Below, one piece after another: positions 3,001-60,835 of a stretch of 64,000 nucleotides of DNA. Location: positions 16,359-80,358 of the forward strand of contig JAJFUE010000059.1 in NCBI GenBank assembly GCA_021372575.1, given 5' to 3'. The notes under the pieces are model-generated. The model made no database searches. It was not told where the DNA came from and worked only from the letters and a program-made list of their open reading frames with translations. Every line of letters starts with the position of its first letter. Positions within the stretch are counted from its first letter, which is position 1. The position numbers were made by a program, and so were the translations under genes. This DNA comes from a bacterium. GTDB taxonomy: Bacteria > Sumerlaeota > Sumerlaeia > MVZB01.

Positions 3001-6000
3001 ACCACCGAATCCGGCCGCATGGTCATTCAAATATACGATGTTACCTGCACCCGAACTGCAAACAATATCCAGATACTCATCGTGGTTGAGATCGCCAAGC
3101 GCGAGAGCGGCCGTTGCGGTCTCTGGTCCGAATTTAATCACGCCTGCCGATATTTCATCCTGTGGGAAAACACCACTTCCGTTGTTCAGGTAAATGATAG
3201 TTCCGTTCTGATTGCCTGTAAGAACGTCGAGGCTGCCGTCACCGTTCAGATCGCCCAGCTTAAGTGTTGAGGTTTGCGCATCTGTTCCTCCAACATAACG
3301 TATTTGGCTGAATGCAATTAAGCCAGAGGCGTCATTGATCAAAATCATATTGCGTCCGCCTGCACAGCCCACAGCCAGATCAATCCAGCCGTCTCCGTTG
3401 ATATCGCCGCAATCAAGCGAACTCACGTATCCTGCTGATAATCCCAAATCAACTCGGTAAGCAGTTGAGAACGATACAGGCGTCCCTCCTAGATTCCTCA
3501 TTACCCAGACAATTCCCGCCGAATCGAGAACGACGATATCAAGCCGGTTATCGCGATCGATATCGGCAAGCTGAAGGCCTGACGGCATAATCTCTTTCAA
3601 TTCGAGCTTGATCACATTGCTTGAGGTGTCATCGTCCAATTTACCTGCGCCATCGTTCAAATATACCCGTAATGGATCATACGCACAGGCGACCACCACA
3701 TCGATCTTCCCATCACCGTTTAGATCGCCAACCGCTGTTTGCCGGGCCATATTATAACCGGAACCAAAAGTATCCATATCCCTGTCATAATAAGCAGAGG
3801 CGCTGCCCGTCTGATTAGTGAATCGCCAAACGAACGGTTTTTGTAAAGCCAATCCTCCAGTACTCAAAACGCTTGAAGTGATTGTAACCTCGGCCATTTC
3901 TCCGGGCTTTAAGCCTGTAACTGAACTCGAGATCTCTGCCAGATTAACATTCGGATTGAGAATCAGAGCACCTTGATATGATCTTTGGATACTCAAAGTC
4001 CCTGTTGAGACATTTTCGGCCCGAACTTCTCTGTTGAACCGTGCCATAATGTCCAATCTGGATGTTGCACTGGTATCCGGATCATTTTGCGGAGGCACCA
4101 CCAGACTGACATGCATGCCCGAAGCCGCCCCGGTTGAGGCGCTGGCTTCATTTGAGAAAATGCCAACACCAGTTGACAACCTGGGCCGAACCACGAACCG
4201 ATATTCTGTTCCAGGCTGCAATCCATTGAATTCATACTTCCGGTCCAAACGATTCTGAAGCGTCTCGTAAAACTGATACGATTCGGAAGTTGCCAGTCGA
4301 TACCATATCTCCCAAGCTGTAGCCAGATTCTCGGAGTATGTCCAGGTCAGGTCGATGCGGGTGTCGGATACAGCCTGGGCCGACAATTGGACTGGATTTG
4401 AGCGGGACTGAACATCTCCTTTTAAGAACAAATTGCCATTCAGGTCGATACTGGATACGACCTGCCCCAGGTTATCGATCGTAAAAAGATCGCTATCGAG
4501 AGGTTGAGTCAATCTGGCGACTTCGCCTTTCAGATATATGTTACCTATCGTGTCGGGAATATTTTTACCACCCAGATCGATCAGTGAAATGATCCGATCC
4601 CCATTATAGAGAATCCACCATTCCTGGTTCTGGTCCGCGGCGAGCGTATTCAGAATCGATTCCGGCACATGCTCGCTGAGATAACCATGCGTTCGCAAAT
4701 TGCCGGCGGTATCAAACTCTACAAATGGATATCCCGAATAAATGTCATTGAACGATGCCAACGTGGATGATGGATCGTATAGCGGCTCGTTGTTGTCCCA
4801 GATTGAAACGACGGACGTTGTGTTTGACCCAAGCTGTGCATGATCAGGTGTTCCAATCGTAATCTGAATCGACTCCTCATTTTCACGCACACCGTCCGTT
4901 GTGCCTTGAATAACAATGGCTCCTTGTGTTTGCCCCGCCGGTATTACCAGGGGACTTGCGGCGATATTATAGTCACCCGCGCTTGTTCCCGGCCCCAGAG
5001 TTACCGTAAATGGAATCGAAATATCATAACCACTGGCCGCGGATAACCTCACAATAACTGTCCTGCCATGCCCCTCGGCCACCCACGATTGCGATTCGAT
5101 CGTCACTGTCGGCGGATCGTCATTATCCTGGATCGTGTAAGTGGAAGATGAAGGCGTCCCGAGCGACACGTTGACGGGGTCCGTCAGGTTGACCACAACA
5201 GTCTCGTCCGGCTCATCCATCGTGTCGTCATTGATCGTGAGCGTGATCTGTTTACTTGTCTCACCCATGCCAAACGATAGCGGACTGCTGGGACTTGATG
5301 AATAATCGATCCCGCCACCGGTTGCTGTTGATCCGTTGAAATTAAATGGCACAGTGATGGGCATCCCGGAGGGTGCCGATAATGTCACCGTCAGAACTTT
5401 GGTCGTAACGTCTTCATTGCCGGAGCTGTTTGATGTAATCGTCACGCTGGGCGGATCATCGTCATCGATGACTGTGTAAGTGGCGATATACGGGCTGCCC
5501 AAGTTGGCGTTGGTCGGAGCGCCCAAAGTAATTATGAGCGTTTCGTCCGGCTCATCCACGCCATCGGGCGTGAAAGTCACGTTAATGTTCTGGGACGTCT
5601 GTCCCGAGCTAAATGTCAATGGAGTTGCAGTGTTGATCGTATATTCACCGGTACCGAGCGTTCCACCCGCGCTAAATGGCACCGTGATCGTCTTGCCCGA
5701 TGCCGCCGACAGCGAAACAGTGAACATCTTGCTTGTCGAACTCTCGCTGCCGGAACTGGTTGCGGGTGATATCGATACCGTCGGCGGGTCGTCATCATCC
5801 TGGATTGTATACGTGGCGCTGCTTGGCGAGCCCATCGTGGCATTCGTTGGCGTCCCCAGGCTTATGACGACAGTTTCGTCGTCCTCGTCCACGCTGTCAT
5901 TTGTAATTGTTAATGTGATTTGCTTGCTTGTCTCGTTGGCCGCAAATGAAAGCGGGCTGGCAGGACTGATTGAAGAATAATCGCTCCCTGATGTTGCCGT

Positions 6001-33888: not shown

Positions 33889-35355
33889 CTAAGTCATTTG
33901 GTCCTGTGGTATCGGTTCAGGTTGGGCGTGGCCCGTGTCCATTGCACCGAGACTGCGCCGATCCACGTCCTGCGCGATCTTCACCTTGGCTTCTTCGATG
34001 TCGTAATCCGCCGGCAGGATGTCGCCGTCAATCAGGAGTTGGAGCACGTCATCGACCGGCAGCATTTCGGCAACGGCCAGGTCCTTGAACGCATTGATCA
34101 TCGCGGCCTCGATGATCCGGTCGTCGAAATCGCGGCTGTAGGCAATCTTAATCGCGCCGGCATCGGCGCCGCGTCCCCAGCGCGCCATGATCTCCCAGCA
34201 CCGCCGCTCCGACGCTTCCAGCGAAATCGAGGCTGATTTGAGCGAGGACGTGAAAATCCGGCGGTCCTCACGTTGTGAGTCGGCTGACTGGACCTGGGCC
34301 GAATCCTTCTGCGCTTGAGCAAGGGCAATGGAGTAAATCCGGAAACGCAAGTCTTTGATCGACTCGCGCAAGGACGCAAAGCCTTGGCCAGTGGTCTCCA
34401 AGTAACCGACAGCCGTTGAATAACCGGGCTCGGATTTGAGGTGAAACCCCTTGGCGGCGTCGAGGCGGGTCGGCTTGTCTTTGCCAATCGTGTAAGGAAT
34501 CGGGTGGGCCGATAGCCGTTCGAACCAGTCGAGATCGGATTCTTTGTTGTAAATCTGGAGGATGTGCCCCAGAACGCTTTGAGCAACTGGCCAGCCCGAA
34601 TGGTCGGTTCGCTTGACGCCAAAGAACGGCACAAGCGGCACTTCGCCGAACGGGTTTACGCCTTGCTCAACGAGCTCATAAGATTCGCGTTCGCTATTGC
34701 TGTCCTCGGCTTCCGTCGCCTCGTAAACAAGCCACTGCGACCGGGTCCACACTTTCCATTGTTCGCGAATTCCGGGCTCACTGCCCCAGCCCTGATCACC
34801 CCGGCCGGTGGCATTTGATTCGGTGATAACGGCCCACAGCAGTTTTCGATCCGCGCCCACTTCCCAGTCGATGACAGCGTCAGCCGGTATGCGCTGAAAG
34901 AACGGCCGAAGTCCTGCGTTTTTCTCGTCGAGCGCGCTTTTGAGAAGCGACTTGCCCTGTTCATCCGTGGGCACACGCGGTGCATCGACCAGAACCCAGT
35001 GGATCCCGTCCACCTGGGCCTCACGGGCTGCATCGTGAAAGAACACATCGGCCGGCGTGCCGAGCATGTCGACGTCGGCCTGCCACGAGTCAAGTTGCGC
35101 CGGAAGCTCGCGTAAATGCGGTTTTGCAAAAAGCATCGCCTGTCGGGCCGTGACGATCTTCTCAACCCAGGGATCCAGGACGGCGCGTTTTAAGCGAAGT
35201 TCGTAATCGTCGTCCGACTCGTTCTTCTCGCGGTAGAGATAAACGTCGCGCTTGGCCTTGACCGCCCCTTGGCCATCAAACAGATCACGGGATTTTTGCC
35301 GAACGTGAGCGGTATCGACAAAATCGGGGTGTTGGATTGTAAGATTAATCGACAT
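33889..35355 (-). CDS. Portal protein, probable (488 aa)
   Basis: Size and position immediately downstream of the large terminase; 1-nt overlap with terL stop. Confidence 0.55.
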   Translation of the reverse strand: MSINLTIQHPDFVDTAHVRQKSRDLFDGQGAVKAKRDVYLYREKNESDDDYELRLKRAVLDPWVEKIVTARQAMLFAKPHLRELPAQLDSWQADVDMLGTPADVFFHDAAREAQVDGIHWVLVDAPRVPTDEQGKSLLKSALDEKNAGLRPFFQRIPADAVIDWEVGADRKLLWAVITESNATGRGDQGWGSEPGIREQWKVWTRSQWLVYEATEAEDSNSERESYELVEQGVNPFGEVPLVPFFGVKRTDHSGWPVAQSVLGHILQIYNKESDLDWFERLSAHPIPYTIGKDKPTRLDAAKGFHLKSEPGYSTAVGYLETTGQGFASLRESIKDLRFRIYSIALAQAQKDSAQVQSADSQREDRRIFTSSLKSASISLEASERRCWEIMARWGRGADAGAIKIAYSRDFDDRIIEAAMINAFKDLAVAEMLPVDDVLQLLIDGDILPADYDIEEAKVKIAQDVDRRSLGAMDTGHAQPEPIPQDQMT

Positions 35356-36944
35356 CAGAAAATCCCGACCCCCGCGAACGTGTCTTCCTCAATGGCAACG
35401 CCGCCCGTCTGATCCACAGTCATTGCGCCGGCGAGGGCATCAGGCGCGTCGTCGTGATCGTTGAACGGCCACTCTTCAAGTTGTTCGGTGAGCCGCCGCC
35501 AGTGCTCGCCCTGGTAGTCATCGCGAATGCGGTCCTCCAGATCGGCGGGAAAACGCAGCCATCCCTGAATGAGCGGTGGTCCGATCCGCTCGATGCGAGC
35601 ATCCTTGGGCTCAGACGGATGACGCACATCCCAGGGAAGCTGCCAATATGGGCTGCCCTCTTTACGAAGCTGCTCCTGCCGCGCCTCGAACACCTTCCGA
35701 ATCCACAGTTCCTCTTTCGGGAGCATCTCGACTTCAAGCCGATGGATTCCGTGGAACCCGAGGCGAACCCATTTTTCGTGCAAGGTGAAGCAAGCGGCGA
35801 TCTGGTCCTCCGGCGGACGCCGATCCACCCAGCAATCGATGAGATCGTGCGTTCCATCCGGCCTGCGCAGAACCAGAATCAAAGCGCCGTAATCGCCCTT
35901 AGCCGCGTTCCGGCCACCTGTGGGATCGAGAAATGCCAGAATCTTGCCCGAAGGCGTGAGGTCGTTCCAGTTCCAGCGCGCCCACTTGTCGCGCCCAGGG
36001 AATCGAACATCCTCGGGACTGATGGCCTTGCCTTCAAACAGTCGTTTCCATGCCGATCCCGGTTCGTCCCGTTTCTTGATCAGTCGTTCTTTCGGCCACT
36101 GATCCCACAGCGGAAGGAAACCTTCGGTCGGCTCGTTCCAACCCTCGGGCGGATGCGAGATGCGGAAATACATCCGGTCCACGTTCTCGTAACCGAGCCA
36201 TAGCGTAGCGAACGAGGGCGATTCGGCCATCTTGTGAACAGCGTCTTCGCGGTGCCAGCAGTTGTTCGTCACGAGCAGAATGCCATTATCAGTAAGGCGG
36301 TTCGCGAACGTATCGAAAATGGCGCTGGCGACATGCCGACGCTCGGCTTCGCTGTAGAGGCAGTTGCGCGTGACACAGTCATCCAGCCAGATCGTGTCGA
36401 GGCGGTGACCTTCGGCTTGGCCGAATAGGGAATAGCACTCGAATGCCGGCGCGGACTGGCCGACGAGGTAGAGTTTTTGTTTACTCCACTCGCCCTGGTC
36501 GGCAGCGCTGCGGTTATAATCCGGAACGATTTGAGGAAACACGCTCGCGCACGTGGCGGACGTAAGCGCCTTCCGCACTCGCATGAGGTGTTCCTCGGCA
36601 AGGTCCTTGTCCCGCGACACGATGCCGATCTTGCGCGTGAGGTCATGCGCCAGAATCCAGATGAGGGACGGAATGATCTGGCTCGTTTTCGCGTGCTCGG
36701 GCGGGGCCTGAATGAGGACGTTTTTGTGTGCGCGAAAACAAGTAAACAGGAAATGCTGCATGAGCTTATGAAACGCATGCGGACGCACCTTGCGAAACGA
36801 GGCCGCTGTGATCAGATCAGCAAAAAGGCGGGGGTTCGCCCTTGCGGCAACCATCAACGCGTCGAGCTTGATTTGATCTTGAGTGAGATTACTCGCCGTG
36901 ATCGTCGGCATCGGCGCCCCCTCCTTTCTGCTGAAGTTCTTCAT
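35355..36944 (-). CDS. Terminase large subunit
   Basis: N-terminal ATPase (..VLIQAPPEHAKTS.. Walker A-like, ..TIWLDDCV.. Walker B-like) and C-terminal nuclease acidic residues; size 529 aa. Confidence 0.65.
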   Translation of the reverse strand: MKNFSRKEGAPMPTITASNLTQDQIKLDALMVAARANPRLFADLITAASFRKVRPHAFHKLMQHFLFTCFRAHKNVLIQAPPEHAKTSQIIPSLIWILAHDLTRKIGIVSRDKDLAEEHLMRVRKALTSATCASVFPQIVPDYNRSAADQGEWSKQKLYLVGQSAPAFECYSLFGQAEGHRLDTIWLDDCVTRNCLYSEAERRHVASAIFDTFANRLTDNGILLVTNNCWHREDAVHKMAESPSFATLWLGYENVDRMYFRISHPPEGWNEPTEGFLPLWDQWPKERLIKKRDEPGSAWKRLFEGKAISPEDVRFPGRDKWARWNWNDLTPSGKILAFLDPTGGRNAAKGDYGALILVLRRPDGTHDLIDCWVDRRPPEDQIAACFTLHEKWVRLGFHGIHRLEVEMLPKEELWIRKVFEARQEQLRKEGSPYWQLPWDVRHPSEPKDARIERIGPPLIQGWLRFPADLEDRIRDDYQGEHWRRLTEQLEEWPFNDHDDAPDALAGAMTVDQTGGVAIEEDTFAGVGIF

Positions 36945-37374
36945 GCTCGCCCTCGTATTCGGGCAGCATGTTTTTCATGATGTCCGCCGCCTGCTCGGGC
37001 GTATGGAGCACGCGGACCGGGCCGCCCCCGGCACCTGTCAGTTCAAGTTGCCGCCGCTCGCTCCAGTTTTCAGGATCACGCCGGGAGAGGAACGCGACCT
37101 GCGCCTTGGTATCGGGCGGGAAGTATTGGCCGCTGTCCGGATGGGTGAAGCCTGTAGCGTTTTGGAACAGAGCATTGGCGACCTGAGCGATGCCCGTCGC
37201 GCGCCCGCGCTCAATTGCCTCCGTAAACTCCCTATGCAGTTTCTTTTTCTTGTAAAGCGTGGACGGCACGATCCCGAGCGACAGCGCAATCTGGTCCATC
37301 GACAGACCGCGCGCGGCAAGCCGTTCGGCATTTTTCAAATCCTGGGCTGTGGGTTCCCATTTGGGCCGTGCCAT
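36889..37374 (-). CDS. Terminase small subunit, probable (start MARPKW at 37374)
   Basis: HTH-like ..LSMDQIALSLGIVPSTLYKK..; stop/start overlap TGACATGG with upstream gene; overlaps terL start. Confidence 0.5.
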   Translation of the reverse strand: MARPKWEPTAQDLKNAERLAARGLSMDQIALSLGIVPSTLYKKKKLHREFTEAIERGRATGIAQVANALFQNATGFTHPDSGQYFPPDTKAQVAFLSRRDPENWSERRQLELTGAGGGPVRVLHTPEQAADIMKNMLPEYEGEHEELQQKGGGADADDHGE

Positions 37375-37375
37375 G

Positions 37376-38116
37376 TCAGTGCTTCCAGGGAATATGCAGG
37401 GAGCGCTGGTTCTTGTGGATCGCTCCCTCGCGGGCAGAAATTGCATCGCCGAAGTACTCGCGCAGGACCCGGTTTGTGCGGGATTCGCTGTCGGCGTCGC
37501 GGTAAAGCCCCTGCCCGCCGGGATTGTTCATCGTTTCGTGTTGGACGAAGGCATAACGGGTGTCGATGAATGCCTTCCGGTGGAAATGGGCATTCAAGCC
37601 GGAGATGAAGAAGTCTCCACACGCCATGAGGCGTGTGGGGTAGTAGAGCTTTGAGCCGGCCAGAAGGCCGTAGCTCATGCCGTTGATGTAACCGCCCAGC
37701 GAGAACGGTTTCATCGGGTTGTAATACATGCAGACGGCGATATTGGAGAATCCGAAGAAATAAGCGCCGATGTCCTCGCACAGTTGCGCGGCCGTCTCGA
37801 TCGCGTCCTGGGTTTCATCTGGTGAGAGCCGCGGATACGTCGGCTCGCCGGGCTCGAACGAAATCTTTACAAACGCGTCCACGTCATCATCACAGTGGAA
37901 CAGATTGCCGAAATGTTCATACATCCACTGGAGCTTGGGCGGAAGACCTTTGACGCTGTCAGGGTGAACAACGATTTCCACGTTGGGGTAGTAGTCTTTA
38001 TAAACCGCTTCCTGGGACTCGGCCACACACAGGACCGGATGGACGAACAACCGGTGGGAAGAAACCCGGCCGGCGCGCCCATGCGTGGGAATGACGGTGT
38101 GGATCCGATCAGTCAT
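37376..38116 (-). CDS. Hypothetical protein with DxD motif (putative GT-A-like nucleotide-sugar transferase), start MTDRIHTVIPTHGRAG
   Basis: ..NLFHCDDDVDAFV.. DxD-like motif; ATGA overlap with ParB-like nuclease gene; fold assignment tentative. Confidence 0.35.
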   Translation of the reverse strand: MTDRIHTVIPTHGRAGRVSSHRLFVHPVLCVAESQEAVYKDYYPNVEIVVHPDSVKGLPPKLQWMYEHFGNLFHCDDDVDAFVKISFEPGEPTYPRLSPDETQDAIETAAQLCEDIGAYFFGFSNIAVCMYYNPMKPFSLGGYINGMSYGLLAGSKLYYPTRLMACGDFFISGLNAHFHRKAFIDTRYAFVQHETMNNPGGQGLYRDADSESRTNRVLREYFGDAISAREGAIHKNQRSLHIPWKH

Positions 38117-38796
38117 TCGAGCCCCAGTGCGGATTTGAATACTTGAAATGAAATCGCCCGTCCCTCGCCAACGGTCTTGGATTTGTTCGTGCGGCATTTC
38201 GTGATAGCGAGGATGGATTTGAGCCGCGTCCAGTCGAGGTCGTTTTCCGTGAAGATCACGACGTAGTTGTAGGACTCGTTGAGGCGCGCCACGAGCGGGT
38301 AGATAGGATTCTCTTTTTCGGATTCATCCTGCGGCTTATCAGAAGGGGTCTCGTCGGCTTCGCGTTCAAGATCACAAAACAGGCGGTTCAGGCCCACGTC
38401 ATCGACCATGAGTGGATCTTCGTCTTCGAGGCGGCTCAAAATTCCTGCGAGCCCATCGGTAAACTCCCCCGCGATGTGCGGGTTGTTGGCTTCGACCATC
38501 GCAGCATCGGCAACTGTTTCATCCCAGTCCACCACGCGAACCGGCCACGATTCGCCGGTTTCGGGATCGGTGATATGCGGCTCGGGTTCAAGTTCGAGCG
38601 TGGCGCCCTTCTCCATCAGCACATTCACCCGTTGGTGTCCGGCTACAAGAAAGCCGGTCCGCCGGTTCCACACGATCCCGGCGATGTTGCCGAAACGCCG
38701 CATGGACGCCGAAAGCCCACGGCGGCTTTCGCCGTCAATCGAGCGCGGGTTTTCGGGATGGGCCGCAAGGTCCTGGATGCTTGAGAGTTCGTGCAT
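38113..38796 (-). CDS. ParB-like nuclease domain (ParB/Srx N-terminal fold) protein
   Basis: ..LAAHPENPRSID.. and ..LVAGHQRVNVL.. motifs of the ParBc family; typical position upstream of small terminase. Confidence 0.6.
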   Translation of the reverse strand: MHELSSIQDLAAHPENPRSIDGESRRGLSASMRRFGNIAGIVWNRRTGFLVAGHQRVNVLMEKGATLELEPEPHITDPETGESWPVRVVDWDETVADAAMVEANNPHIAGEFTDGLAGILSRLEDEDPLMVDDVGLNRLFCDLEREADETPSDKPQDESEKENPIYPLVARLNESYNYVVIFTENDLDWTRLKSILAITKCRTNKSKTVGEGRAISFQVFKSALGLE

Positions 38797-40527: not shown

Positions 40528-41853
40528 TTGCGCGACGAAACCGACGAGACCAAGGCGGTTTACTCCAAAATCGTCGAGAACCTAAAAAAGCTCGCGCGCC
40601 TCGAGCCGGTTATGCATGGCTCGAGCGACTTTAAGCTGCGCCCGATCGCCTCCGAAGACGAAGTGCGTGCATTCGAGACGAAATACACGGTCAAGCTGCC
40701 CACCGAATACCGCAACTTCATTACACGTTGCGGGCGAGGCGGGGCCGGACCCGGTTATGGTTTGCTTGATTTCAAAGATCTCGAAATCGGATCGCTCGAA
40801 AAGCCGCCTAATTCCGAATGGTATCTTAAAGAAGCCTGGATTGGGGATCTCTCGAAACCTTTCCCATATGTGGAACCATGGAACATGGATGTGCCATATG
40901 AGGTGCTTGCGCAGAAAGACTCAGAGGAAAGCGACCGTGTGGTGGATCAATTTGGGGAGAAGTACTGGGCTCCGCTCGATGGCGCTTTTCCGGTCGCCCT
41001 CATCGGCTGCGGCTATTACTATTGGCTCGTAACGACCGGCCCCGAAGCCGGCCATATTTGGGTCGATAACCGCGCGGCAGATGGCGGGTTGCGTCCGCTC
41101 ATGCTACCCGGTCTGGAGCGCGTGACGTTCCTGTCGTGGTATCAAAACTGGATAGACAAGGCGTTTGCGGCGGCGGAGGAACAGGGCTTGCACGAGGAAA
41201 CCGAAGAGGCCAGGGCGATGTATGCACAGATCATAGCCGATGTGGAAACGCTCAAGCGCGCGAAGCCCAAAGTGTTCGGCGCGGATTCGCACGAATTCAA
41301 GCTCCATCCGCCCGTGCCCGAGTATGAAATCGCCGGTTTCGTACAGGATCATCACATCGAACTGCCCCAGGAATACCGCAATTTTCTGATGCGCTGCGGT
41401 CGCGGCGGCGCCGGGCCTTACTATGGACTTTTCGACTTTCACATGATGGACAACGGCTTCGGCCATGTGAAATGGAATGAAGGCGGCGACTTCGTCGGCA
41501 CACTTTCAAGACCCTTCCCGTTCACCGAGCCATGGAACGATCTCAGTAAGCATCCGGCCGACGAACTTTTGGAGCGTGATTGCGACGAGTATGACCGCCA
41601 GATGCAGGTGTTCGATCAATGTTATTGGGCGCCGATCGACGGGGCCATCCCGATCTGCCATCTAGGTTGCGCCCTGCGGCATTGGCTCGTGGTTACAGGG
41701 CCCGAAGCCGGCCACGTCTGGGCTGATCATCGCGCCGAAGAAGGCGGTCTGTTTCCCGTCACTAATAGCGGTGAGCGCGTGACGTTTCTCGGTTGGTACC
41801 GCGCCTGGCTCGACAAAGCCCTTGAGATCATGAAAAAAGAACAGGCTGAATAG
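40528..41853 (+). CDS. Tandem SMI1/KNR4 (SUKH superfamily) domain protein, 441 aa, internal duplication
   Basis: Two copies of the ..LP(T/Q)EYRNF(I/L)(T/M)RCGRGGAGP(G/Y)YGL(L/F)DF...YWAP(L/I)DGA(F/I)P.. block (residues about 50-200 and 270-430). Confidence 0.55.
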   Translation: MRDETDETKAVYSKIVENLKKLARLEPVMHGSSDFKLRPIASEDEVRAFETKYTVKLPTEYRNFITRCGRGGAGPGYGLLDFKDLEIGSLEKPPNSEWYLKEAWIGDLSKPFPYVEPWNMDVPYEVLAQKDSEESDRVVDQFGEKYWAPLDGAFPVALIGCGYYYWLVTTGPEAGHIWVDNRAADGGLRPLMLPGLERVTFLSWYQNWIDKAFAAAEEQGLHEETEEARAMYAQIIADVETLKRAKPKVFGADSHEFKLHPPVPEYEIAGFVQDHHIELPQEYRNFLMRCGRGGAGPYYGLFDFHMMDNGFGHVKWNEGGDFVGTLSRPFPFTEPWNDLSKHPADELLERDCDEYDRQMQVFDQCYWAPIDGAIPICHLGCALRHWLVVTGPEAGHVWADHRAEEGGLFPVTNSGERVTFLGWYRAWLDKALEIMKKEQAE

Positions 41854-42302
41854 GCCACCGCCCCGCCGCGCCGCGCGCGCCGGCCGATCTCGCTCGGGCG
41901 CAAGGTTGTTTGCCATCATCGTGATGGCATTCGCGCTGATTATTCTAGAATTTATCGAGTTCGCCCTGCGTGCGGCACTGGCTTACAAAACGCGGGCAAT
42001 CTGCATAACATCACAACAGCCGTGAACACTGGATTTCGGATTTCGGGAACAGTCAACAAAATAGGCATGTGCGGCGTCTATCAAAACCTGCATGATAATT
42101 GAGCTAATACCGTATCTCTATCCCTGATTAAACGGGGTCAACAGGCTGGGTGGCCGCCCCTTAAATATTTTCCTTCCGATCGCGTTCCTCAACACCAGTC
42201 TGGAGCCGGTTTTTATACAACGCGCTGCCGTGTCAAGCAACCGCACCCCGTATAATTCCGGTATCCGCGCGAGGTTGTTTCCCGTTCCCAAAAAGTAAAA
42301 AT

Positions 42303-42613
42303 CGTCAGTGATCCGTCACTGATCAATCACTGACGCGTCACTGACGAATCACTGATCGATCACGGATTGATCACTGACGCGTCAGTGACGCATCACTGAT
42401 TCGTCACTGATTGATCACTGATTTCTATAAACATTCTTATACGATCCAATTACCATTCAGGATACGAGCGGAGGCTTAACTCTTATAAACACAATGACCC
42501 GCATCGAATCACTGATGAATCACTGATTGATCACTGACGCGTCACTGATTCGTCACTGATCGATCACTGACGCGTCACTGACGAATCACTGATCGATCAC
42601 TGATCAATCACTG
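42303..42613. repeat. Iteron-like array: about 22 copies of an 11-bp unit (TCACTGA + 4-nt spacer) in two blocks flanking an AT-rich core (42422-42506); includes perfect 18-bp palindrome TCACTGACGCGTCAGTGA
   Basis: Direct reading: spacers drawn from cgcg, cgaa, tcga, ttga, tcaa, ttcg. Block 1 42303-42421 (11 units), block 2 42507-42613 (10-11 units). About 37-bp segment duplicated between blocks. Stops in all frames. Confidence 0.85.
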
Positions 42614-42645
42614 CAGGAACAGGGAACAGGGAAGGGAACAGGGAA
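42613..42645. repeat. Heptamer microsatellite (CAGGGAA/CAGGAA)n abutting iteron array
   Basis: caggaacagggaacagggaagggaacagggaa. Confidence 0.7.
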
Positions 42646-43026
42646 TATATTGTACATCCTAAAGGATGTTAGTCGTCACCGCCGCTTTCGCGGCTCCGGC
42701 GGCTGCGCCGCCCCCCTTCCTTTCATCCATTTCACCCGAGAAAATATTTTCTACGAATCCAAGAATATACAGACGCGGTAGAGTAGTACACCCTCCCCAG
42801 GGAAACCGATCGAAGCTCACGCAGAGTTTTTCGCGATTATTTCGCGTGAGCTAAAAATCTAAAATTATTCCTGCTTGTGAGCGGGCGGTTAAAAACCCAA
42901 CCAAACTCAAAGTTTTCCGCCGTAAAAAAAATTTCAAAATAGGGATTTACAAAAGCCCCCTGTCTGAAAGAAGCTACTCGCCATCATACGGTGGGCGTAT
43001 AGTCCACCACCCAAGGAGAGGACACG

Positions 43027-43797: not shown

Positions 43798-44436
43798 GTG
43801 AACCCACCGGAGAAGAACCCGAGAAAGAGGCGAAAATTCACGATGGAAGAACGCAGAACAAGACGCGGTTACGATTTCGGCGAAGTGGCGAGCGCTTTTC
43901 AAAAATCCGTGCGTCGGGGACTGCTCGACGACGCCCTCTACTGGGGCGTGGAGCTTTACCTGTCCGGCTTTCACGAATACGCCTGGAAACGAATGCGCGT
44001 GATGTGCTCGGAGGATATCGGACCGGCCGAGCCGAGCCTCCCCGCCCAGATCGCCGGGCTCTACGCGATGTTTCGGCAGTTCCTGGAATCCAAGCCGAAA
44101 CGGACCGGCGCGATGGGCTCGGAGAAACTCTTTTTCGTCCACGCGATCATGCTTCTCGTCCGCGCCCGCAAATGCCGGATCGTCGATCACGCGAATATTT
44201 ATCATTTCCGCGCTCATGACCAGATTCAGCGCCGCGAGATTCCCGATTGGGCTTTGGACAAGCACACCTATCGCGGCAAGCGCATGGGCCGCGGCATCGA
44301 TCACTTTTTCGAGACCGGAACGCTGCTCGAGAATCGTAGCGCCGAAATCGAGGACGTGTATCGCGACCGCGCAATGGAGTGGGCCGATATCGAAATGCCC
44401 ACGCAAGATGCCACAGGGCAGCTTGAGATGTTTTAA
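43798..44436 (+). CDS. Hypothetical protein (212 aa)
   Basis: ORF track, operon context; no motif recognised. Confidence 0.45.
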   Translation: MNPPEKNPRKRRKFTMEERRTRRGYDFGEVASAFQKSVRRGLLDDALYWGVELYLSGFHEYAWKRMRVMCSEDIGPAEPSLPAQIAGLYAMFRQFLESKPKRTGAMGSEKLFFVHAIMLLVRARKCRIVDHANIYHFRAHDQIQRREIPDWALDKHTYRGKRMGRGIDHFFETGTLLENRSAEIEDVYRDRAMEWADIEMPTQDATGQLEMF

Positions 44437-44495: not shown

Positions 44496-46277
44496 ATGGC
44501 AATTGCAGCAAGAAATCGGGCGGACGATCTGCCCGAAGAACCGGCGCCGCCGGAGACCGAATCGATCCTCATGATCGATCTGGACAGGATCGAGCCTTCG
44601 CCCAAAAACCCGCGCCGCTTCCGCGACGGCGTGCGCGATCCGAAAATCCGAGAGATCGCCGAGTCGATCAATGCGGTAGGGGTCCTGCACCCGATTCTTG
44701 TCCGGCCGGTGAACAGCCATTACGAGATCATGGCCGGGGAGCGCCGCTGGCATGCCTCGCGCCTTGCCGGCCGGCCGACGATCCCCGCGATCGTGCGCGA
44801 GCTCGACGATAAGGCCGCCCTGGAAATCACCGTGATCGAGAACATGCAGCGCGAGGACCTGCACCCGATCGAGGAAGCGCGCGGTCTCAAGGAACTGCTC
44901 GACGCCGGTTACACCGCCGAGGATGCGGCCGCCCGGCTCGGCAAATCGACCGCCTGGATTTCGTGCCGGGCTCAGCTGGCCAAGCTCATTCCCGAGTTCG
45001 CTTCGGCGATGTCGGGCGAGGATGAAAACATCAACCTCACGGGCTGGAGCGTGAGGGCGATGGAGTTGGTTGCCCGCCTGCCCGAATCCACGCAAAAACT
45101 CCTTTGGGGCAAATTCTTGGAACACGCTGAATCGAATCAGAACGTCGAGCGAATCGAGCAAGCCACGACGAAAACGGTCGAGATGATCGTCGCCCGTTTC
45201 ATGCTCGATCTCAAAACCGCGCCGTGGGAGATGGACGCATGCTTTGGCGATTGTCCCGTGTGCGCCCAGTGTTCAAAGCGCAGTCAAGCCCAGCCCGATC
45301 TTTTCGGGGGCGATGAGGACGAGGACCGCTGCCTCGACCCGCAGTGCTGGGAGAAGAAATCCGACCTCTACACCGAGCAACTCGTAGTTCAAGCCGAGCG
45401 CGATTATCCGGGCATCTTGAAGGTCAGCTCCGATTATCAGACCGACTTGCCCGGCGTGCTCGGATACCAGCACTACACGATCAGCCGCGAGGGAGCCGAA
45501 GGCGCCGTCCCGGCCGTGGTTGTCGAGGGCCGGTCACCGGAAATGATTTGGGTGAAGGTCGATTCGGGCGAACGTTCGCGCAAGGCCGTTGCAAACGTAA
45601 CCGGCGAGAAGCAAGACGAGTCCACCCGGATCGCCGCCCGAAAGGCGCAGTACGACAAGCTCCGCCGCCGGATCGTGATGGACCTCATGGCGACAAAGCT
45701 CAAGGACCTTGTCGAAGATGGCGTGGGTCCCACTTGCGCCGTGACACCGCAGAAAATGCTCGCCTGCATCCTCGCAACCGGCCTGCCATATTCCCATCTC
45801 TCGACGATGGATTATGCGAGTCCCTGGCCAATCGTTCAGCGCAATCTGGACAAGTCCGAGGGCGAGCTCATGATGGACCTCGCCTTGCAGATGGCCGAGT
45901 CGTTCAACAAACGCCTGCACTCGTTCTATGACGAACCGAAGTGGGGTGAAGCGCTTGCGCTCTCGGAGCTGTTCGGGATCAAGCTGGACGCGCTGCTTCG
46001 GGAAGCGGCCGTTCAGAAACCATATCCCAAGTCCTGGCGTGCCCAGGCCGAGTCGTTGCCCCCAAGCCCGATCCCCGAGCGGGCTTTGTATTCGAACCCT
46101 GAGTCCCGTCATCCCTTCGAACCCACGAGTGAGAGCGACGAACCCACCGAAACCGAATCAGCCGATCCCGATGAAATGGCGGAGGACGGCCAACCCGACG
46201 AGGAGTGGGAGGACGAGGAACAGGACGATTACGAGGAAGAAGATTACGAGGAGGAGGGCGACGATGATGAAGACTGA
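44496..46277 (+). CDS. ParB/Spo0J-family N-terminal domain protein (593 aa) with Cys-rich (Zn-finger-like) middle region and poly-acidic C-terminal tail
   Basis: ..IEPSPKNPRRF..GVLHPILVRP..YEIMAGERRWHASRLAG..IPAIVREL.. ParB box motifs; CFGDCPVCAQC...CLDPQCW; C-terminus EEWEDEEQDDYEEEDYEEEGDDDED; GGAGAGGAGAA RBS. Confidence 0.6.
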   Translation: MAIAARNRADDLPEEPAPPETESILMIDLDRIEPSPKNPRRFRDGVRDPKIREIAESINAVGVLHPILVRPVNSHYEIMAGERRWHASRLAGRPTIPAIVRELDDKAALEITVIENMQREDLHPIEEARGLKELLDAGYTAEDAAARLGKSTAWISCRAQLAKLIPEFASAMSGEDENINLTGWSVRAMELVARLPESTQKLLWGKFLEHAESNQNVERIEQATTKTVEMIVARFMLDLKTAPWEMDACFGDCPVCAQCSKRSQAQPDLFGGDEDEDRCLDPQCWEKKSDLYTEQLVVQAERDYPGILKVSSDYQTDLPGVLGYQHYTISREGAEGAVPAVVVEGRSPEMIWVKVDSGERSRKAVANVTGEKQDESTRIAARKAQYDKLRRRIVMDLMATKLKDLVEDGVGPTCAVTPQKMLACILATGLPYSHLSTMDYASPWPIVQRNLDKSEGELMMDLALQMAESFNKRLHSFYDEPKWGEALALSELFGIKLDALLREAAVQKPYPKSWRAQAESLPPSPIPERALYSNPESRHPFEPTSESDEPTETESADPDEMAEDGQPDEEWEDEEQDDYEEEDYEEEGDDDED

Positions 46278-49595: not shown

Positions 49596-50252
49596 TCAGT
49601 GGAACTTCAATCCGCCACGCACAAGCCCGTAGAGCTTTGCCTTTTTAGGCATCGGCATCGGGTAGATGGACGGCGTGAGGCCGATCAAGAACGCCATCTC
49701 GGCGGTCGACCCGACAATCTTGATCGCATATCCCTCGCCGGGGATTTCGATGATGATCTGCTTGCCCGACGCCGGCATCGCCGTGGTCGGTTCGACGAAC
49801 ACGATGTCCCCGGCCTAGTAGTGAGGCGCGAGGGCTTTGCCACCGACCTGCAAAGCGACCATTTCTCGGTCGACGCCGGAGAGGAACAGATTATACATCG
49901 ACCAAGTGATCGATACCGAATCCTTGGATTCTTCATTGATCGAAACGAAGTCGGCAGCACGGCTGCGCGTTTTGCCGGCCGCGATCTCGCCGATGATGGG
50001 AATTTCAGTCGTCTCGCCCTTGATCTCTTCGCCGATGAGGTCCTTGACGCTCATTCCGAGCGAGCTGGCGATCTGCTCGATTTTATCGTCGGTCGGGAAG
50101 CGCACACCGTTTTCCCAATGAGAATACAGCGAAACGGTCACGGCGAACCGGCGCGCCATGTCTTTTTGCATGAGCTTGCGGTCCTTCCGGTAATGCTTGA
50201 TCACGTACCGGAAATGATCCTTGACCGCTGTGGAGACACCGCGCTCGAGCAT
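49596..50252 (-). pseudogene. cI/LexA-like repressor (XRE HTH + S24-like domain) interrupted by in-frame TAG (49815-49817) and lacking the catalytic Ser (GGKAL instead of GDSM)
   Basis: ORFs 49815-50252 and 49596-49802 are in the same frame, separated only by TAG. Translation ..LQVGGKALAPHY*AGDIVFVEP..IKIVG..KLYGLVRGG follows the LexA C-domain layout. GGAGG RBS before ATG 50252. The N-terminal 145 aa product may still act as repressor. Confidence 0.5.
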
Positions 50253-50498: not shown

Positions 50499-50753
50499 AT
50501 GAACCAGCCACCACGAACCCGCCGAGTGTTCGATCCATCGCTCCTCAAATCGGCCCGTGAACGCGCCGGCATGACTCAGCACGAGCTTTCGACCCGTTTG
50601 GTCGAGCGCGAGGTCTCCACCGGAGTTCAGCGCGAAATGATTTGGCAGTGGGAGAACGGAGCGCGCATTCCGCGCGCCGTGGCTTTGGCCAATATGGCCG
50701 ACATTCTGGGCGTCTCGCTCGATTCGTTTTTCAGGCAAGAGGAAGTGGCCTAA
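50499..50753 (+). CDS. Cro-like XRE-family HTH regulator
   Basis: ..RAGMTQHELSTRLVEREVSTGVQREMIWQWENGARIP..LANMADILGVSLDSFF HTH_XRE pattern; divergent from repressor. Confidence 0.6.
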   Translation: MNQPPRTRRVFDPSLLKSARERAGMTQHELSTRLVEREVSTGVQREMIWQWENGARIPRAVALANMADILGVSLDSFFRQEEVA

Positions 50754-50757
50754 CACG

Positions 50758-51672
50758 ATGCGTATCCGCACGATCAAGCCCGAGTTCTGGACGTCGCTGG
50801 ACATGGCCAAGGTCAGCGAGCCGGCTCTTATCCTCGCGGTCGGCCTCCTGAACTACGCCGATGACAAGGGCTACTTCGTCGCCGATGCACGCCTGATCCA
50901 TGGGGCGCTTACACCGCTGCGTGAGCTTTCGCGGCCGATCATGGAATGCTTGGGGGAACTTCGGGAGGCGGGCTTCATAAACCTCTGCACGGGCACGAAT
51001 GGCCGCCCGTATGGGCATGTCGTAAATTTCCTCAAGCATCAAACCATCAATCGGCCCAAGGCGAGCAGGATTGCGCCGTTTTGGTCCGACACGCCCCTGG
51101 ACTGTGGAGATAGTCGGCAGGTCACGGATATACCGATTCCCGTGTGTTCCTCGGCTGTTCAAGTAAATGAAACGGTTCCGGCCGATACCGAAATCGCTTC
51201 TGTCACTGAACCGACACCGGATGAACCCGCTATACCCAGTGAACCGGAGCTTGCCAGTTCATTGGCGTCTGCCGCTGAAGTCACACTGTTCAGCGATGAG
51301 CCTGAACCCGAACCGGAAGCACCGAGAGAGCCTGAGCAACCGAAAAGCCACTGGATCATGGAGCTTTGGAACGCTCACGCGCCGACCGCCTTGCCGCGTT
51401 GCACAACCTGGTCCAAAAAACGCCAGACGGCAGCGAGGGCTCGGCTCAAGGAGTATCCAGATCGCGGCCATTGGCAACAGGCCATCGAGTCCATCGCGGA
51501 TTGCCCGTTCCTGATGGGTCAGAACGACCGGGGCTGGAGCGCCAGTATTGACTGGCTCCTGCTTCGGCCCGACTCGATCACGAAAATTATGGAAGGACAC
51601 TATCGATGCCGCGGGCGGCCGCCCGCGCTCGTCGGATCATCCATCGCCGGCGAGGGAGATCTGAGTTTCTAA
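50758..51672 (+). CDS. Replication initiator / replisome organiser-like protein, probable
   Basis: Position immediately upstream of DnaC-like loader; N-terminal ..IKPEFWTSLDMAKVSEPALILAVGLLNYADDKGYF.. winged-helix-like; acidic Pro-rich linker. Confidence 0.35.
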   Translation: MRIRTIKPEFWTSLDMAKVSEPALILAVGLLNYADDKGYFVADARLIHGALTPLRELSRPIMECLGELREAGFINLCTGTNGRPYGHVVNFLKHQTINRPKASRIAPFWSDTPLDCGDSRQVTDIPIPVCSSAVQVNETVPADTEIASVTEPTPDEPAIPSEPELASSLASAAEVTLFSDEPEPEPEAPREPEQPKSHWIMELWNAHAPTALPRCTTWSKKRQTAARARLKEYPDRGHWQQAIESIADCPFLMGQNDRGWSASIDWLLLRPDSITKIMEGHYRCRGRPPALVGSSIAGEGDLSF

Positions 51673-51693
51673 ACTTGAAGGGAGGTGAAAGCA

Positions 51694-52398
51694 ATGCAGG
51701 AGAACACGGCACGAGTGATTGAACTGGAAGAAGAACCCGAACCCCGCGATCCGTTCAGCGATCCGGCATATCTGCGGAACTGGCTGATCGAGAACGACAT
51801 GATCGCGGCCGGCATCCCGAAACGGTTTCGTCCTGGGTTTGCAGCCTACGAAGAGAGAACTCCCGAATGCGCGTTCCTGCGTCGGAAAGCGCTGGCCTGG
51901 GCAAACGAATTCGATCCGCGTGACCCAACGAAAGGTTTTGCCCTGACCGGCGTGACAGGCGCGGGCAAGACGCACCTGGCCGCGGCGATCGCGCGGCGAT
52001 TGATCGAGCGTCGATGCTCGGTGATGTGGGTCAACACGGCCGCGCTGTTCATGCGCATCCGGTCCACCTACGGACACGACAGCGATGAGAGCGAAGAGGA
52101 CTTGATTGATGAGCTGGTCGCACCTGATCTGCTCGTCCTCGACGACCTCGGGGTCGAGCGTCCTACGGCCTGGGTCCTGGAGCGGCTTTACGTGATCCTC
52201 AATCGCCGCCACGAGGAGTGCAAGGTGATCATGTTCACTTCCAATTACGATGGCAGGGAACTGACCGAGCGCCTTCGCACGCCCGAAGCCGGGGACCTGG
52301 CCGACCGCTTGATCTCGCGATTGGTCGGCATGGTCGAGTCGATCGGCGATTTTCCAAAGAAGGATTGGCGCAAGGAAGCCTGGAGGCAACGCCAATAA
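51694..52398 (+). CDS. DnaC/IstB-like AAA+ helicase loader
   Basis: Walker A GVTGAGKTHLAAAIA, Walker B LLVLDDLG; GGGAGG RBS before ATG 51694. Confidence 0.7.
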   Translation: MQENTARVIELEEEPEPRDPFSDPAYLRNWLIENDMIAAGIPKRFRPGFAAYEERTPECAFLRRKALAWANEFDPRDPTKGFALTGVTGAGKTHLAAAIARRLIERRCSVMWVNTAALFMRIRSTYGHDSDESEEDLIDELVAPDLLVLDDLGVERPTAWVLERLYVILNRRHEECKVIMFTSNYDGRELTERLRTPEAGDLADRLISRLVGMVESIGDFPKKDWRKEAWRQRQ

Positions 52399-56437: not shown

Positions 56438-57712
56438 ATGTCGGCTGAAAAAGAAACGACCACGCTCGTAGAAAAAATTGGAATTGTAACAATTCGTTCC
56501 GGTGTAAGCCCCCAGAAATCGAAGGGTTTCTGGGTCCTTGAATATCGTTGCCCAGCGGCTTACCCCGGTGATCCCAATCGAGGCCGTCGGATTCGGCGGC
56601 GGATCGATCATGAGGCGATGTCTCTGGCCGATGTACGAAAGACGGCTGATCATCTCACAGCACAAGCATACCAGGGTAAAGGGTATCTACCTGAGCGAGA
56701 TGAAAAAGGGAAAGGGACTACTATCCAGGATGGAATTATTGAAGCACTCAGGCTGACGAACACTTTACCCGAAGTCCGCAAAGAACGTGCGCGCCTCGCG
56801 CTTCGGTTTGTTGAATGGCTTGCCGTGAATTACCCGCAAGTTCAGACTTGGGATCAAATGAGGCCGGCGGTGCTTCAAGACTACGTGCTGCATTTGGAAT
56901 CAAATAAACTCGCGTTCGACACAGTGAGATTGGCGATCGCCCCTATAAAATTGGCGTGGAGGCACATGGCGGACAATTTTCCGGATACTGTTCGGCCCCT
57001 ACCGCGCATTCGTCAGAAACCGGCCCCGAAGAGAGAGATCGACTGTCTCGATGCCGATGACGTTGCCGCGTTGCTGGAATGGCTTAAAAAACATGCGCCC
57101 GATATCTGGCCTCTCGCGATGCTGCAAACTCTGGCCGGTTTACGAATGCTGGAGACGGCTGCTTTGCGCCGCCAGGACGTAAACCTGAAGCAAGGGACAA
57201 TCAGGATCACGAATACGCCGAATCACTCTGTCAAAACAGCCACGAGTGATCGGCTGATACCTATCTGTAAAGAGGTTCGCAGTTGTTTGAAATCGGAGCT
57301 TGCGAATCAGAAGGTGTTTCCGAAGACCGGTGAGATATTCACAAATACAAAGGGCAATCCATGGACAAAGAATGCCTTGGGTTGGAAGTGGAATCGCCTT
57401 CGGAGTAAGCTGGATAAAAAATCGGGAAAGCCGATGATTGTGCTTCAAACGGGGCGCGCCGCATTGGCCGATTTCCAACCGCATCGTCTCCGCGCTTCGT
57501 TCGCGACGATGGCCGGCCGATTGGGAGTTGCAGATAGACTGCTTCAGGCGTATATGGGACATGCGCCGGTCGATGTTCTTGGAGCGCACTATCGCAAGAT
57601 CGGACTCGAGGATTTGAAAGCGGTGTCACAGAAGATGGATAAATGGGGCAACTTAAAGGCTGTTGGTCAAAAACGGGCAAAAAAAGCTCGGCCGGCTTCA
57701 CGAAAACACTGA
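56438..57712 (+). CDS. int: Tyrosine integrase (phage integrase family)
   Basis: C-terminal catalytic region ..HRLRASFATMAGRLGV..LLQAYMGHAPVDVLGAHY (R..H..R..Y); adjacent to tRNA fragment. Confidence 0.8.
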   Translation: MSAEKETTTLVEKIGIVTIRSGVSPQKSKGFWVLEYRCPAAYPGDPNRGRRIRRRIDHEAMSLADVRKTADHLTAQAYQGKGYLPERDEKGKGTTIQDGIIEALRLTNTLPEVRKERARLALRFVEWLAVNYPQVQTWDQMRPAVLQDYVLHLESNKLAFDTVRLAIAPIKLAWRHMADNFPDTVRPLPRIRQKPAPKREIDCLDADDVAALLEWLKKHAPDIWPLAMLQTLAGLRMLETAALRRQDVNLKQGTIRITNTPNHSVKTATSDRLIPICKEVRSCLKSELANQKVFPKTGEIFTNTKGNPWTKNALGWKWNRLRSKLDKKSGKPMIVLQTGRAALADFQPHRLRASFATMAGRLGVADRLLQAYMGHAPVDVLGAHYRKIGLEDLKAVSQKMDKWGNLKAVGQKRAKKARPASRKH

Positions 57713-59807: not shown

Positions 59808-60281
59808 TTACTTCTCGGACGCCAGTCGCGAGTCCGGTTCAAAATTCATGGGGGCTTCGATGGATATTTTGGGGAAATCCGGATGTGCCGGATTGATCAG
59901 GTAGTTGACCTCACCAGGCGTCACGGCACTCGGAACTTCAAGAACCGCCGATGAACAATCGGCGATCCATTTCCCGCCAATTTCCTGTGTTTCCGCCATC
60001 GTTTCCGGAGCATTCCATCCCTTGGGCAGGGATGCCGGGGAAACCGATTTCACAAGGCTTTCGTCAAAGTTCACCGCGATCACGGAAAAGTTATCATGAA
60101 TGGTAGAGATGTCCTCCACGTGAACAAGCAATTCCAGTGTAGCCAGGGATAGCGAGCTCGAGGCATAGACCATGCCCGTGCCGACGAAATTCCAGCGCCC
60201 CCCGTTTATCCTTGCGCCTTCGCCATCGAACGCCGTTGCAAGATGTTTCTTGTGAGTGATGCGGTATGCACGGATCGTCAA
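59808..60281 (-). CDS. RES-domain toxin
   Basis: ..GGRWNFVGTGMVYASSSLSLATLELLVH.. (R..E..S arrangement of the RES family). Confidence 0.6.
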   Translation of the reverse strand: MTIRAYRITHKKHLATAFDGEGARINGGRWNFVGTGMVYASSSLSLATLELLVHVEDISTIHDNFSVIAVNFDESLVKSVSPASLPKGWNAPETMAETQEIGGKWIADCSSAVLEVPSAVTPGEVNYLINPAHPDFPKISIEAPMNFEPDSRLASEK

Positions 60282-60835
60282 CTGAACACCCCGTGTTCAA
60301 TCCTTCCCAAAAGGTGTTCCACCGCTTCCGCGCCCGGATTCGTGTCGCAAAACTCAAGCGGCGTTTTCCCTCCCAGGGCCCGCTTGGGAGATGAGAACCA
60401 TTTCCTTGCTTTCTCGCGCCCTCCAAGCACATCCAATGCCTTTTGGAAACACGAAGCCACCCGCAAGATGCGCTCGGACTCGTCCGGCTTGAACGTCTTT
60501 TTACGGGCAAGAGTCCGAACAGGAATGTTGATCGCGCGCCCGAGATCTTCCGTGGTCACGCCTATCATCGACTTAAGCCGGTCAAACGCATCCCTGGGAA
60601 ATCCTTGATGCAACGTGGATCGCACCCGATCAATGCTGGCGGGGTCAGAATAGATATAATAACCGGTCAAATTGCCGAGAATGGCCGAATACCAGAGAGG
60701 GCGACTGGAGGGTATGTCCACCATCCAATACTGTTTATTGCGGAAAGCAGACGAGCTTTTGCCGACTTGTTTGATGTCTTTCCAGTCAATCAGGATCGTG
60801 GGTTCTGTTTTCATGGTTGTCATAAGGCATATCAT
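60278..60835 (-). CDS. Xre/MbcA/ParS-type antitoxin (HTH + DUF2384-like C-terminal toxin-binding domain); N-terminal extent uncertain
   Basis: ..FDRLKSMIGVTTEDLGRAINIPVRTLAR.. HTH; C-terminal ..GGKTPLEFCDTNPGAEAVEHLLGRIEHGVFS; ATGA overlap with RES gene. Confidence 0.5.
   Translation of the reverse strand: MICLMTTMKTEPTILIDWKDIKQVGKSSSAFRNKQYWMVDIPSSRPLWYSAILGNLTGYYIYSDPASIDRVRSTLHQGFPRDAFDRLKSMIGVTTEDLGRAINIPVRTLARKKTFKPDESERILRVASCFQKALDVLGGREKARKWFSSPKRALGGKTPLEFCDTNPGAEAVEHLLGRIEHGVFS

Follow-up and report, generated by a model that had tools for sequence, protein, structure and literature searches.

We analysed a 64,000-nucleotide stretch of bacterial DNA (the window; contig JAJFUE010000059.1), which carries an integrated temperate phage and, within it, an array of short phased repeats at 42305-42645. 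The array is probably the replication origin of this phage. In a family of phage replication initiators, a module of phased repeats (iterons) lies inside the initiator gene; in the window the same module appears to be intergenic and expanded, 8.1 kb upstream of the gene for an initiator that we call RepO. From sequence comparisons, we infer that RepO binds the array and that replication fires from it. Iteron origins within genes resembling lambda O are known; apparently new here are the unusual unit and spacing, the exit of the module from the gene, and its expansion.

An 11-bp repeat array within an integrated phage

The array was checked by direct reading, with Tandem Repeats Finder and by unit-by-unit enumeration, and all three agree. 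It was first noticed in a short description made from the sequence alone (the original prediction), which counted about 22 phased TCACTGA units. The array holds 21 seven-base units: 17 TCACTGA, two TCAGTGA (42305 and 42382), one TCACGGA (42360) and one TCACTGC (42608). They form two plus-strand blocks, in both of which the distance from one unit start to the next is exactly 11 bp, as predicted. Block 1 (42305-42421) contains 11 units (eight TCACTGA, two TCAGTGA and the single TCACGGA). Block 2 (42509-42614) contains ten, nine TCACTGA followed by the degenerate last unit TCACTGC. The predicted layout of two blocks around an A+T-rich core is retained with revised boundaries, the core occupying 42422-42508 and measuring 87 bp rather than 85 bp. 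Its A+T content is 62%, compared with about 40% in the prophage, and the core is a candidate for the site of unwinding. Across the 1.17-kb gap around the array, the 40-mers of lowest stability fall at 42404-42463, spanning the end of block 1 and the left part of the core. Within the core, TATAAACA occurs twice (42426 and 42484), as does CTTATA; the 10-mer CTTATAAACA, earlier described as the repeated element, is present in full only once.

Two further features follow block 2 on the plus strand. The first is a purine-rich GGAACAG/CAGGGAA tract, GGAACAGGGAACAGGGAAGGGAACAGGGAA, at 42616-42645 (30 bp, 90% purine). The second, at 42681-42712, is a pair of adjacent G+C-rich hairpin-forming palindromes, GCCGC-n4-GCGGC and GGCGGC-n3-GCCGCC, with a z of about -2.4 against shuffles.

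The TCACTGA unit is palindromic but for its central base, and flanking bases extend units to 9-bp palindromes, RTCACTGAY. The small spacer set described earlier is borne out (CGCG, CGAA/TTCG, TCGA and TTGA/TCAA, plus a few others), and the 18-bp palindrome TCACTGACGCGTCAGTGA is found in block 1 at 42371. A stretch is indeed duplicated between the blocks, the longest exact shared segment being 38 bp (42326 and 42563) and not 37 bp. The proposal that all sites lie on one DNA face holds only roughly, since the 11-bp period exceeds the 10.5-bp helical turn and the mismatch adds up to about half a turn over a block.

No open reading frame (ORF) of 40 or more amino acids overlaps 42292-42649; all six frames are closed across the array because the unit and its complement each contain TGA and recur every 11 bp. 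Scanning the gap for promoters gave weak consensus matches only, and the promoter type of the host may differ. Rfam returned only spurious microRNA-family matches to the array, which arise from the palindromic repeats. The array contains 13 GATC and six GANTC sites, and methylation could modulate it if the host has a matching methylase; GATC is very frequent throughout the window, at 8.8 per kb compared with approximately 3.9 expected from length alone.

The window contains 27 copies of TCACTGA, compared with about 5.9 expected, and a count of 27 was reached in none of 100 shuffles. Twenty of these sites lie inside the array, and the seven outside it are near the chance number. These counts bear on the idea that the array is an inert minisatellite or a dispersed host repeat. 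Higher-order periods of 33 and 44 bp, found by Tandem Repeats Finder, show recent block duplication, and perfect 11-mer tandem arrays with TCACTGA exist in unrelated genomes. However, the seven-base cores are conserved across the array while the spacers vary, the array has no match in a plasmid collection, and a related prophage described below keeps the architecture with different spacers. Dispersal as a repetitive extragenic palindromic (REP)-like element, named in the original prediction as a finding that would speak against a phage function, is not seen either, as the motif is not enriched elsewhere in the window. We find this explanation scarcely credible.

The array matches the in-gene origin module of an initiator family

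In a sensitive DNA search of phage genomes, window positions 42586-42645 matched part of the 'replication initiation protein' gene of Marinomonas phage P12026. The in-gene match reads TCACTGAatgaTCACGGAtataTCACTGCaGGAAaGGAACAGGGAACAGGG and has the identical unit, 11-bp spacing, degenerate last unit and purine tract that mark the 3' end of the array. The P12026 protein is 31% identical (E 1e-38) to the product of window ORF 50758-51672 (plus strand). This 304-residue protein is RepO, the predicted array binder.

RepO consists of a winged-helix N-terminal domain (residues 1-110, with the motif KHQTINR), a disordered linker and a DnaD-like C-terminal domain. In PHROGs it matches replication initiation proteins (6.7e-31), and its C-terminal part matches DnaD-like helicase loaders. 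The AlphaFold model shows a confidently predicted winged helix over residues 1-110, whose third helix spans residues 61-70; the wing is followed directly by residues 94-99. The best match of the model among solved structures is the N-terminal domain of staphylococcal plasmid RepA (4pt7, 4pql and 5kbj), with weak E values of 4e-3 to 5e-2; a sequence search of solved structures gave no meaningful match.

The gene order around RepO is the lambda O/P arrangement. A cI-like repressor gene (helix-turn-helix and S24 peptidase domains; approximately 49596-50252, minus strand) and a cro-like gene (50499-50753, plus strand), both with coordinates mapped from gene calls of public contig L134, are followed by RepO. 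Directly after it, in the lambda P position, comes a DnaC/IstB-like AAA+ helicase loader (51685-52398, plus strand). The RepO gene itself lacks the origin module: its linker is proline/glutamate-rich and includes only stray units, TCACGGA at 51122 and TCACTGA at 51203.

The extent of the module was assessed across the initiator family. An alignment of RepO homologues led to at least 160 loci, 80 from viral contigs and 80 from metagenomes (L140-L299), and the family is larger than this sample. At nearly all loci, the linker-encoding DNA just after the N-terminal domain carries three to four near-palindromic seven-base units with an 11-bp period. The 3' end of the module is formed by a degenerate last unit and then a GGAA-type purine-rich tract. 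Phasing was counted in 138 distinct linker sequences and in control segments of the same loci. At least three similar units in 11-bp phase are present in 111 of the 138 linkers (80%) compared with 21 of 2070 controls (1%), and a tract with at least 21 purines in 24 bases is present in 104 of 138 (75%) compared with 88 of 1380 (6%). In the 80 viral-contig loci, where up to 10 kb was searched on each side, strict unit clusters occur only inside the initiator gene. Family members include Enterobacter phage Tyrion, a Klebsiella prophage and Gordonia phage Gsput1. The initiator gene occupies the lambda O slot in Tyrion and the Klebsiella prophage, and in Gsput1 a DNA helicase gene comes next.

With the modules aligned at the first base of their purine tracts, block 2 of the window matches them unit for unit and in register. 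Its degenerate TCACTGC is followed by A and then by GGAACAGGGAACAGGGAAGGGAACAGGGAA (42608-42645), on the same strand as the initiator gene, and family linker peptides match the translated array (E 1e-4). The array shares with the family module the units and their 11-bp period, the last unit and purine tract, and the unit class described below; it departs from the family in being intergenic. The tract after block 2 had been taken for a (CAGGGAA)n microsatellite. It is present, and it is a conserved part of the origin module rather than an incidental repeat. Of the two functions originally offered for the array, an iteron origin and a ParB centromere, these results support the first, since the unit, its 11-bp spacing and the purine tract together characterise the in-gene module of the initiator family.

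Similar repeats also occur beside packaging genes. TCAGTGA arrays of 7 to 16 units with 11-bp spacing adjoin small and large terminase and portal genes in the unrelated viral contigs L007 (2426-2600), L009 (12917-13040; the same element as in L002) and L010 (695-960). They raise the possibility that the window array is a pac-like packaging site bound by the small terminase subunit. In the pac site of phage P1, short TGATCA/G repeats are clustered to either side of the cleavage core, and some of the 13 GATC sites in the window array lie within TGATCA or TGATCG. The terminase genes of the window, however, are some 5 kb away on the opposite strand, and packaging leaves unexplained why most of the 138 distinct family sequences carry the same units within the initiator gene. 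The terminase-adjacent arrays also have purine tracts and could themselves be stand-alone origins of the same kind. A packaging function for the window array is very improbable.

Initiator residues and unit sequence vary together

The sequence of the unit tracks a short motif at the end of the initiator N-terminal domain, HQxx[N/D/S][K/R/H], together with the residues that start the third helix, the predicted recognition helix. Initiators with HQxxNK have TAC(C/G)GTA units, those with HQxxNR have TCAC(T/G)GA, those with HQxxDR have TCGACGA, those with HQxxDK have TCCAAGA-like units and those with HQxxSH have TCCGGA. Across these classes the 11-bp spacing is constant and the purine tract recurs. 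More generally, HQxx[N/D/S]R goes with TCAC(T/G)GA, TCGACGA or related units. There are no real exceptions to the pairing among the loci, the apparent ones being artefacts of pattern matching. The alignment columns that best predict the unit class correspond to residues 59-66 and 96-99 of the window protein. RepO, with KHQTINR, belongs to the NR class, and the unit predicted from this is TCACTGA. Comparison across the family suggests a natural recognition code, in which a few initiator residues would correspond to the sequence of the unit.

Within this family, one locus (L262) has an in-gene TCCAAGA module (5400-5500) that is repeated exactly at the end of the contig (9800-9928), 4.4 kb downstream. 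The second copy is either a second origin or an assembly artefact.

Coding constraint on in-gene units

Inside a gene, the 11-bp period rotates the reading frame from unit to unit, and a TCACTGA beginning at the third position of a codon would introduce an in-frame TGA. None of the 16 in-gene units at codon position 3 is TCA[C/G]TGA, 11 of them being TCACGGA. TCA[C/G]TGA accounts for 57 of the 77 units in the two remaining frames and for 19 of the 21 units in the non-coding window array. The recurrence of TCACGGA in gene-borne modules is explained by avoidance of the in-frame stop codon. The module clearly illustrates how a coding sequence and a cis-acting site can conflict, with a compromise inside the gene and near-perfect, expanded units in the relocated copy.

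Relocated arrays accompany initiators that lack the module

Close relatives of RepO were not found in viral contigs, and a metagenome scan gave none above 37% identity among the matches listed. The closest relatives with usable DNA are 58% and 48% identical, and the in-gene module is absent from both. The 48% identical initiator belongs to a prophage (L300) in which the matching gene-free gap, here 1.9 kb, contains about 25 TCAC-type units with 11-bp spacing in three clusters of approximately 9, 9 and 7. The last cluster is followed by (GGAACAG)6.4, and the spacers differ from those of the window. Downstream of the purine tract, at about 4672-4706, are the same paired G+C-rich hairpin stems as at 42681-42712 of the window, with different loops. 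Like the window array, that of L300 appears to have left the initiator gene. Both relocated copies retain the purine tract although it has ceased to code for the linker peptide, which argues that the tract acts as DNA.

The original prediction had proposed a search for the array in related genomes. L300 provides one such case. Scans of viral and genome collections for three phased TCACTGA units were of no help in identifying relatives: they returned mainly unrelated arrays, namely perfect minisatellites, coding repeats and terminase-adjacent arrays, none of which has the initiator N-terminal domain in the contig sequence examined. A decayed initiator pseudogene around the window array was considered and rejected: only linker-like peptides match there, and p252, a protein encoded downstream of the array, is unrelated to the initiator (probability 1%).

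The comparison with relatives also bears on the second function offered in the original prediction, a centromere-like or operator site bound by the ParB homologue encoded at 44496-46277 and serving partition or operon regulation. The array lies 381 bp upstream of the ParB-encoding operon, and its two blocks of 11-bp repeats around a core recall parC of plasmid R1. The L300 array, by contrast, is found in 20.6 kb of sequence with no ParB gene. Conversely, the contigs L301 and L303 carry the p212-ParB-DUF6876 operon (one of them also p252) and have no array in the sequence examined, although insertion sequences occupy the expected site just upstream. Taken together, these cases indicate that the array travels with RepO-type initiators that lack the module and not with ParB. 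Among the window genes scanned (all against Pfam, some against PHROGs and NCBIfam), no ParA- or ParM-type partner was detected, and the only AAA+ protein is the DnaC/IstB-like loader. Palindromes of about 16 bp are the usual targets of helix-turn-helix ParB proteins, while the units here are 7 to 9 bp, and the unit type is predicted by the initiator family and not by ParB. There is little reason to believe in a ParB site, and the comparisons support the initiator in the lambda O position (50758-51672) as the protein partner. The Cro and cI proteins, which had also been put forward for binding assays, are not favoured, and no TCACTGA is present in the cI-cro intergenic region. The ParB-centromere lead is replaced by a specific and testable protein-DNA pair.

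More distant homologues of p212, a protein of the ParB operon, are found in other phages (L305-L307) that have neither a TCACTGA array nor a RepO-family initiator. One of these contigs (L306) has at its end, at 1-114, an 11-bp array of a different motif (AAACCCTTAGC, 9.7 copies), also with no RepO-family initiator.

A candidate initiation mechanism and a possible control role

The window has the sequence features of a lambda-like iteron theta origin, with initiator-type repeats beside an A+T-rich region and initiator and loader genes on the same element. We propose that initiator dimers would bind pairs of adjacent units. With near-palindromic units, a symmetric dimer would see direct repeats as equivalent to inverted ones. 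Dimers could then fill both blocks cooperatively, and the resulting in-register filament, with 11 bp per unit on DNA of approximately 10.5 bp per turn, would untwist the DNA by about half a turn per block. The strain might open the A+T-rich core or the purine tract, after which the DnaD-like C-terminal domain and the DnaC-like loader would recruit the host helicase in the manner of lambda O and P. In evolutionary terms, leaving the gene would have lifted the coding constraint and permitted both the near-perfect units and the growth to 21 copies.

Several observations weigh against the array being an origin of this kind. The gap (41854-43026) contains neither a DnaA box nor an IHF consensus site. 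Residue 62 of RepO is methionine, where initiators of the TCACTGA class typically have histidine, proline or glutamine. The motif classes may be a small number of clades, and the covariation statistics ignore shared ancestry. Only two relocated cases, the window and L300, have enough flanking DNA to be judged. The terminase-adjacent arrays of L007, L009/L002 and L010 have no RepO-family initiator in the contig sequence examined. Finally, relatives manage with three to four units, and the presence of 21 near-perfect ones could point to control or titration, instead of initiation or in addition to it.

This last point leads to the most serious rival explanation, that the array binds the initiator mainly for control. 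By titrating the initiator or by handcuffing its two blocks, which could pair across the core, the array would keep the prophage silent, time its replication or exclude phages of the same class. The incA iterons of P1 are a precedent for control by titration and handcuffing. When lambda origin iterons are carried on a plasmid and oop is transcribed as well, replication is blocked in phages whose replication genes are of the lambda type (PMC3349717). Yet the full pattern of units, degenerate last unit and purine tract is found within the window only at the array, as the RepO gene lacks it, and L300 keeps the complete pattern. In addition, the core region includes the least stable DNA of the gap. 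Control as the main function is on balance unlikely, although it is compatible with an origin role.

A more speculative, and rather doubtful, extension is that the origin also serves as a high-capacity initiator sink or pairing device. Blocks looped across the core would hold the prophage origin shut or time its firing, and would exclude incoming phages whose initiators read TCACTGA. If this were true, the array would amount to replication-level immunity encoded purely in DNA and made possible by escape from coding constraint.

Comparison with known systems

For lambda and P22, it is textbook knowledge that the origin consists of repeats bound by the initiator and lies within the O-like gene. 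The RepO system resembles the lambda one in the order of the cI, cro, initiator and loader genes and in an initiator with two domains and a linker. Both also have repeated initiator sites beside an easily opened region of strong purine/pyrimidine strand asymmetry, within the gene in most members of the RepO family. They differ in that RepO has no Pfam match to lambda O at the threshold used and is 'O-like' only by its PHROGs family. The lambda origin has four inverted repeats of about 19 bp, whereas the window sites are near-palindromes of 7 to 9 bp repeated every 11 bp, and the origin candidate of the prophage lies 8 kb outside the gene, with 21 sites in two blocks.

A further system for comparison is gene 18 of the P22-like Salmonella phage L. 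This O-like gene contains six imprecise 11-bp repeats, TGTCCAACGGA, with A+T-rich DNA after them; the repeats carry the annotation of a putative origin (PMC8022706). Its protein is at best a distant relative of RepO (profile comparison probability 44%). Phage L has no GGAA-type purine tract and its origin is within the gene; that origin, too, is predicted only.

The RepA_N plasmid initiators, which include the staphylococcal RepA proteins that best match the RepO winged-helix domain, have an iteron origin inside the rep gene and a C-terminal domain that recruits host replication proteins. They show no sequence similarity to RepO, differ in iteron length and spacing, and belong to plasmids rather than phages. 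In Bacillus phage SPP1 (oriL/oriR) and phage P1 (oriR/incA), initiator repeats lie within or beside the initiator gene and again at a second, remote site, for initiation or copy control. The proteins and repeats of these phages are unrelated to those described here, and in the window the in-gene copy is missing rather than duplicated.

The parC site of plasmid R1 is a parallel to the layout of the array. Its 11-bp direct repeats form two blocks on either side of a short core and of the promoter of genes for a small DNA-binding protein and an actin-like ATPase, and the one-turn spacing supports a cooperative filament. The window array has the same two-block arrangement. In contrast to R1, no ParR/ParM-type match was found among the scanned genes, the genes downstream encode p252, an MgsA_C-like protein and ParB, and the repeats are those of the initiator family.

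No paper was found on the RepO-family pattern, the recognition code or the out-of-gene version in a literature search that was incomplete. The pattern of seven-base units every 11 bp followed by a purine tract offers a means of finding origins in many temperate phages of Proteobacteria and Actinobacteria. In those phages the initiators carry no annotation beyond 'replication initiation protein', 'primosomal protein' or 'DnaT-like'.

The prophage and its gene neighbourhood

The integrated phage spans approximately 12.2 kb to 57.7 kb of the window. The minus strand up to about 38.8 kb carries the lysis, tail, head and terminase genes, the last comprising the small (36889-37446) and large (35355-36944) subunit genes about 5 kb from the array. 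Early genes are on the plus strand from about 39.6 kb, and an integrase gene is found at 56438-57712. The host elongation factor P gene at 62568 lies outside the prophage.

The gene-free gap around the array, estimated in the original prediction at 1.1 kb, measures 1.17 kb (41854-43026) and separates a two-domain SUKH gene from the ParB-encoding operon. The operon encodes p252, which has no family match in our scans, an MgsA_C-like protein (p212), ParB (44496-46277; Pfam ParB_N, 1.3e-25), DUF6876 and DUF932. ParB, DUF6876 and DUF932 are confirmed, whereas the 'beta-clamp-like' protein previously assigned to the operon comes down to one weak NCBIfam DnaN match (E 7e-4) below the cut-off. The MgsA_C-like p212 (43798-44436), which resembles the C-terminal part of RarA, is widespread in phages and is often encoded near RadC, a TAGT-family gene and the large terminase gene.

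The SUKH gene just before the gap (40528-41853, plus strand) has two SMI1/KNR4 (SUKH) immunity-type domains, an unusual cargo for the early region of a phage. A second, short ParB-like ORF at 38113-38796 (minus strand) matches a PHROGs ParB-like partition protein or methyltransferase N-terminal part (E 1e-16). It lies about 0.7 kb upstream of the small terminase gene on the same strand, with ORF 37376-38197 in between. Just outside the prophage, on the minus strand, a gene for an Xre/MbcA-ParS-type antitoxin (60278-60835) and an adjacent ORF (together 59808-60835) probably form a host toxin-antitoxin pair.

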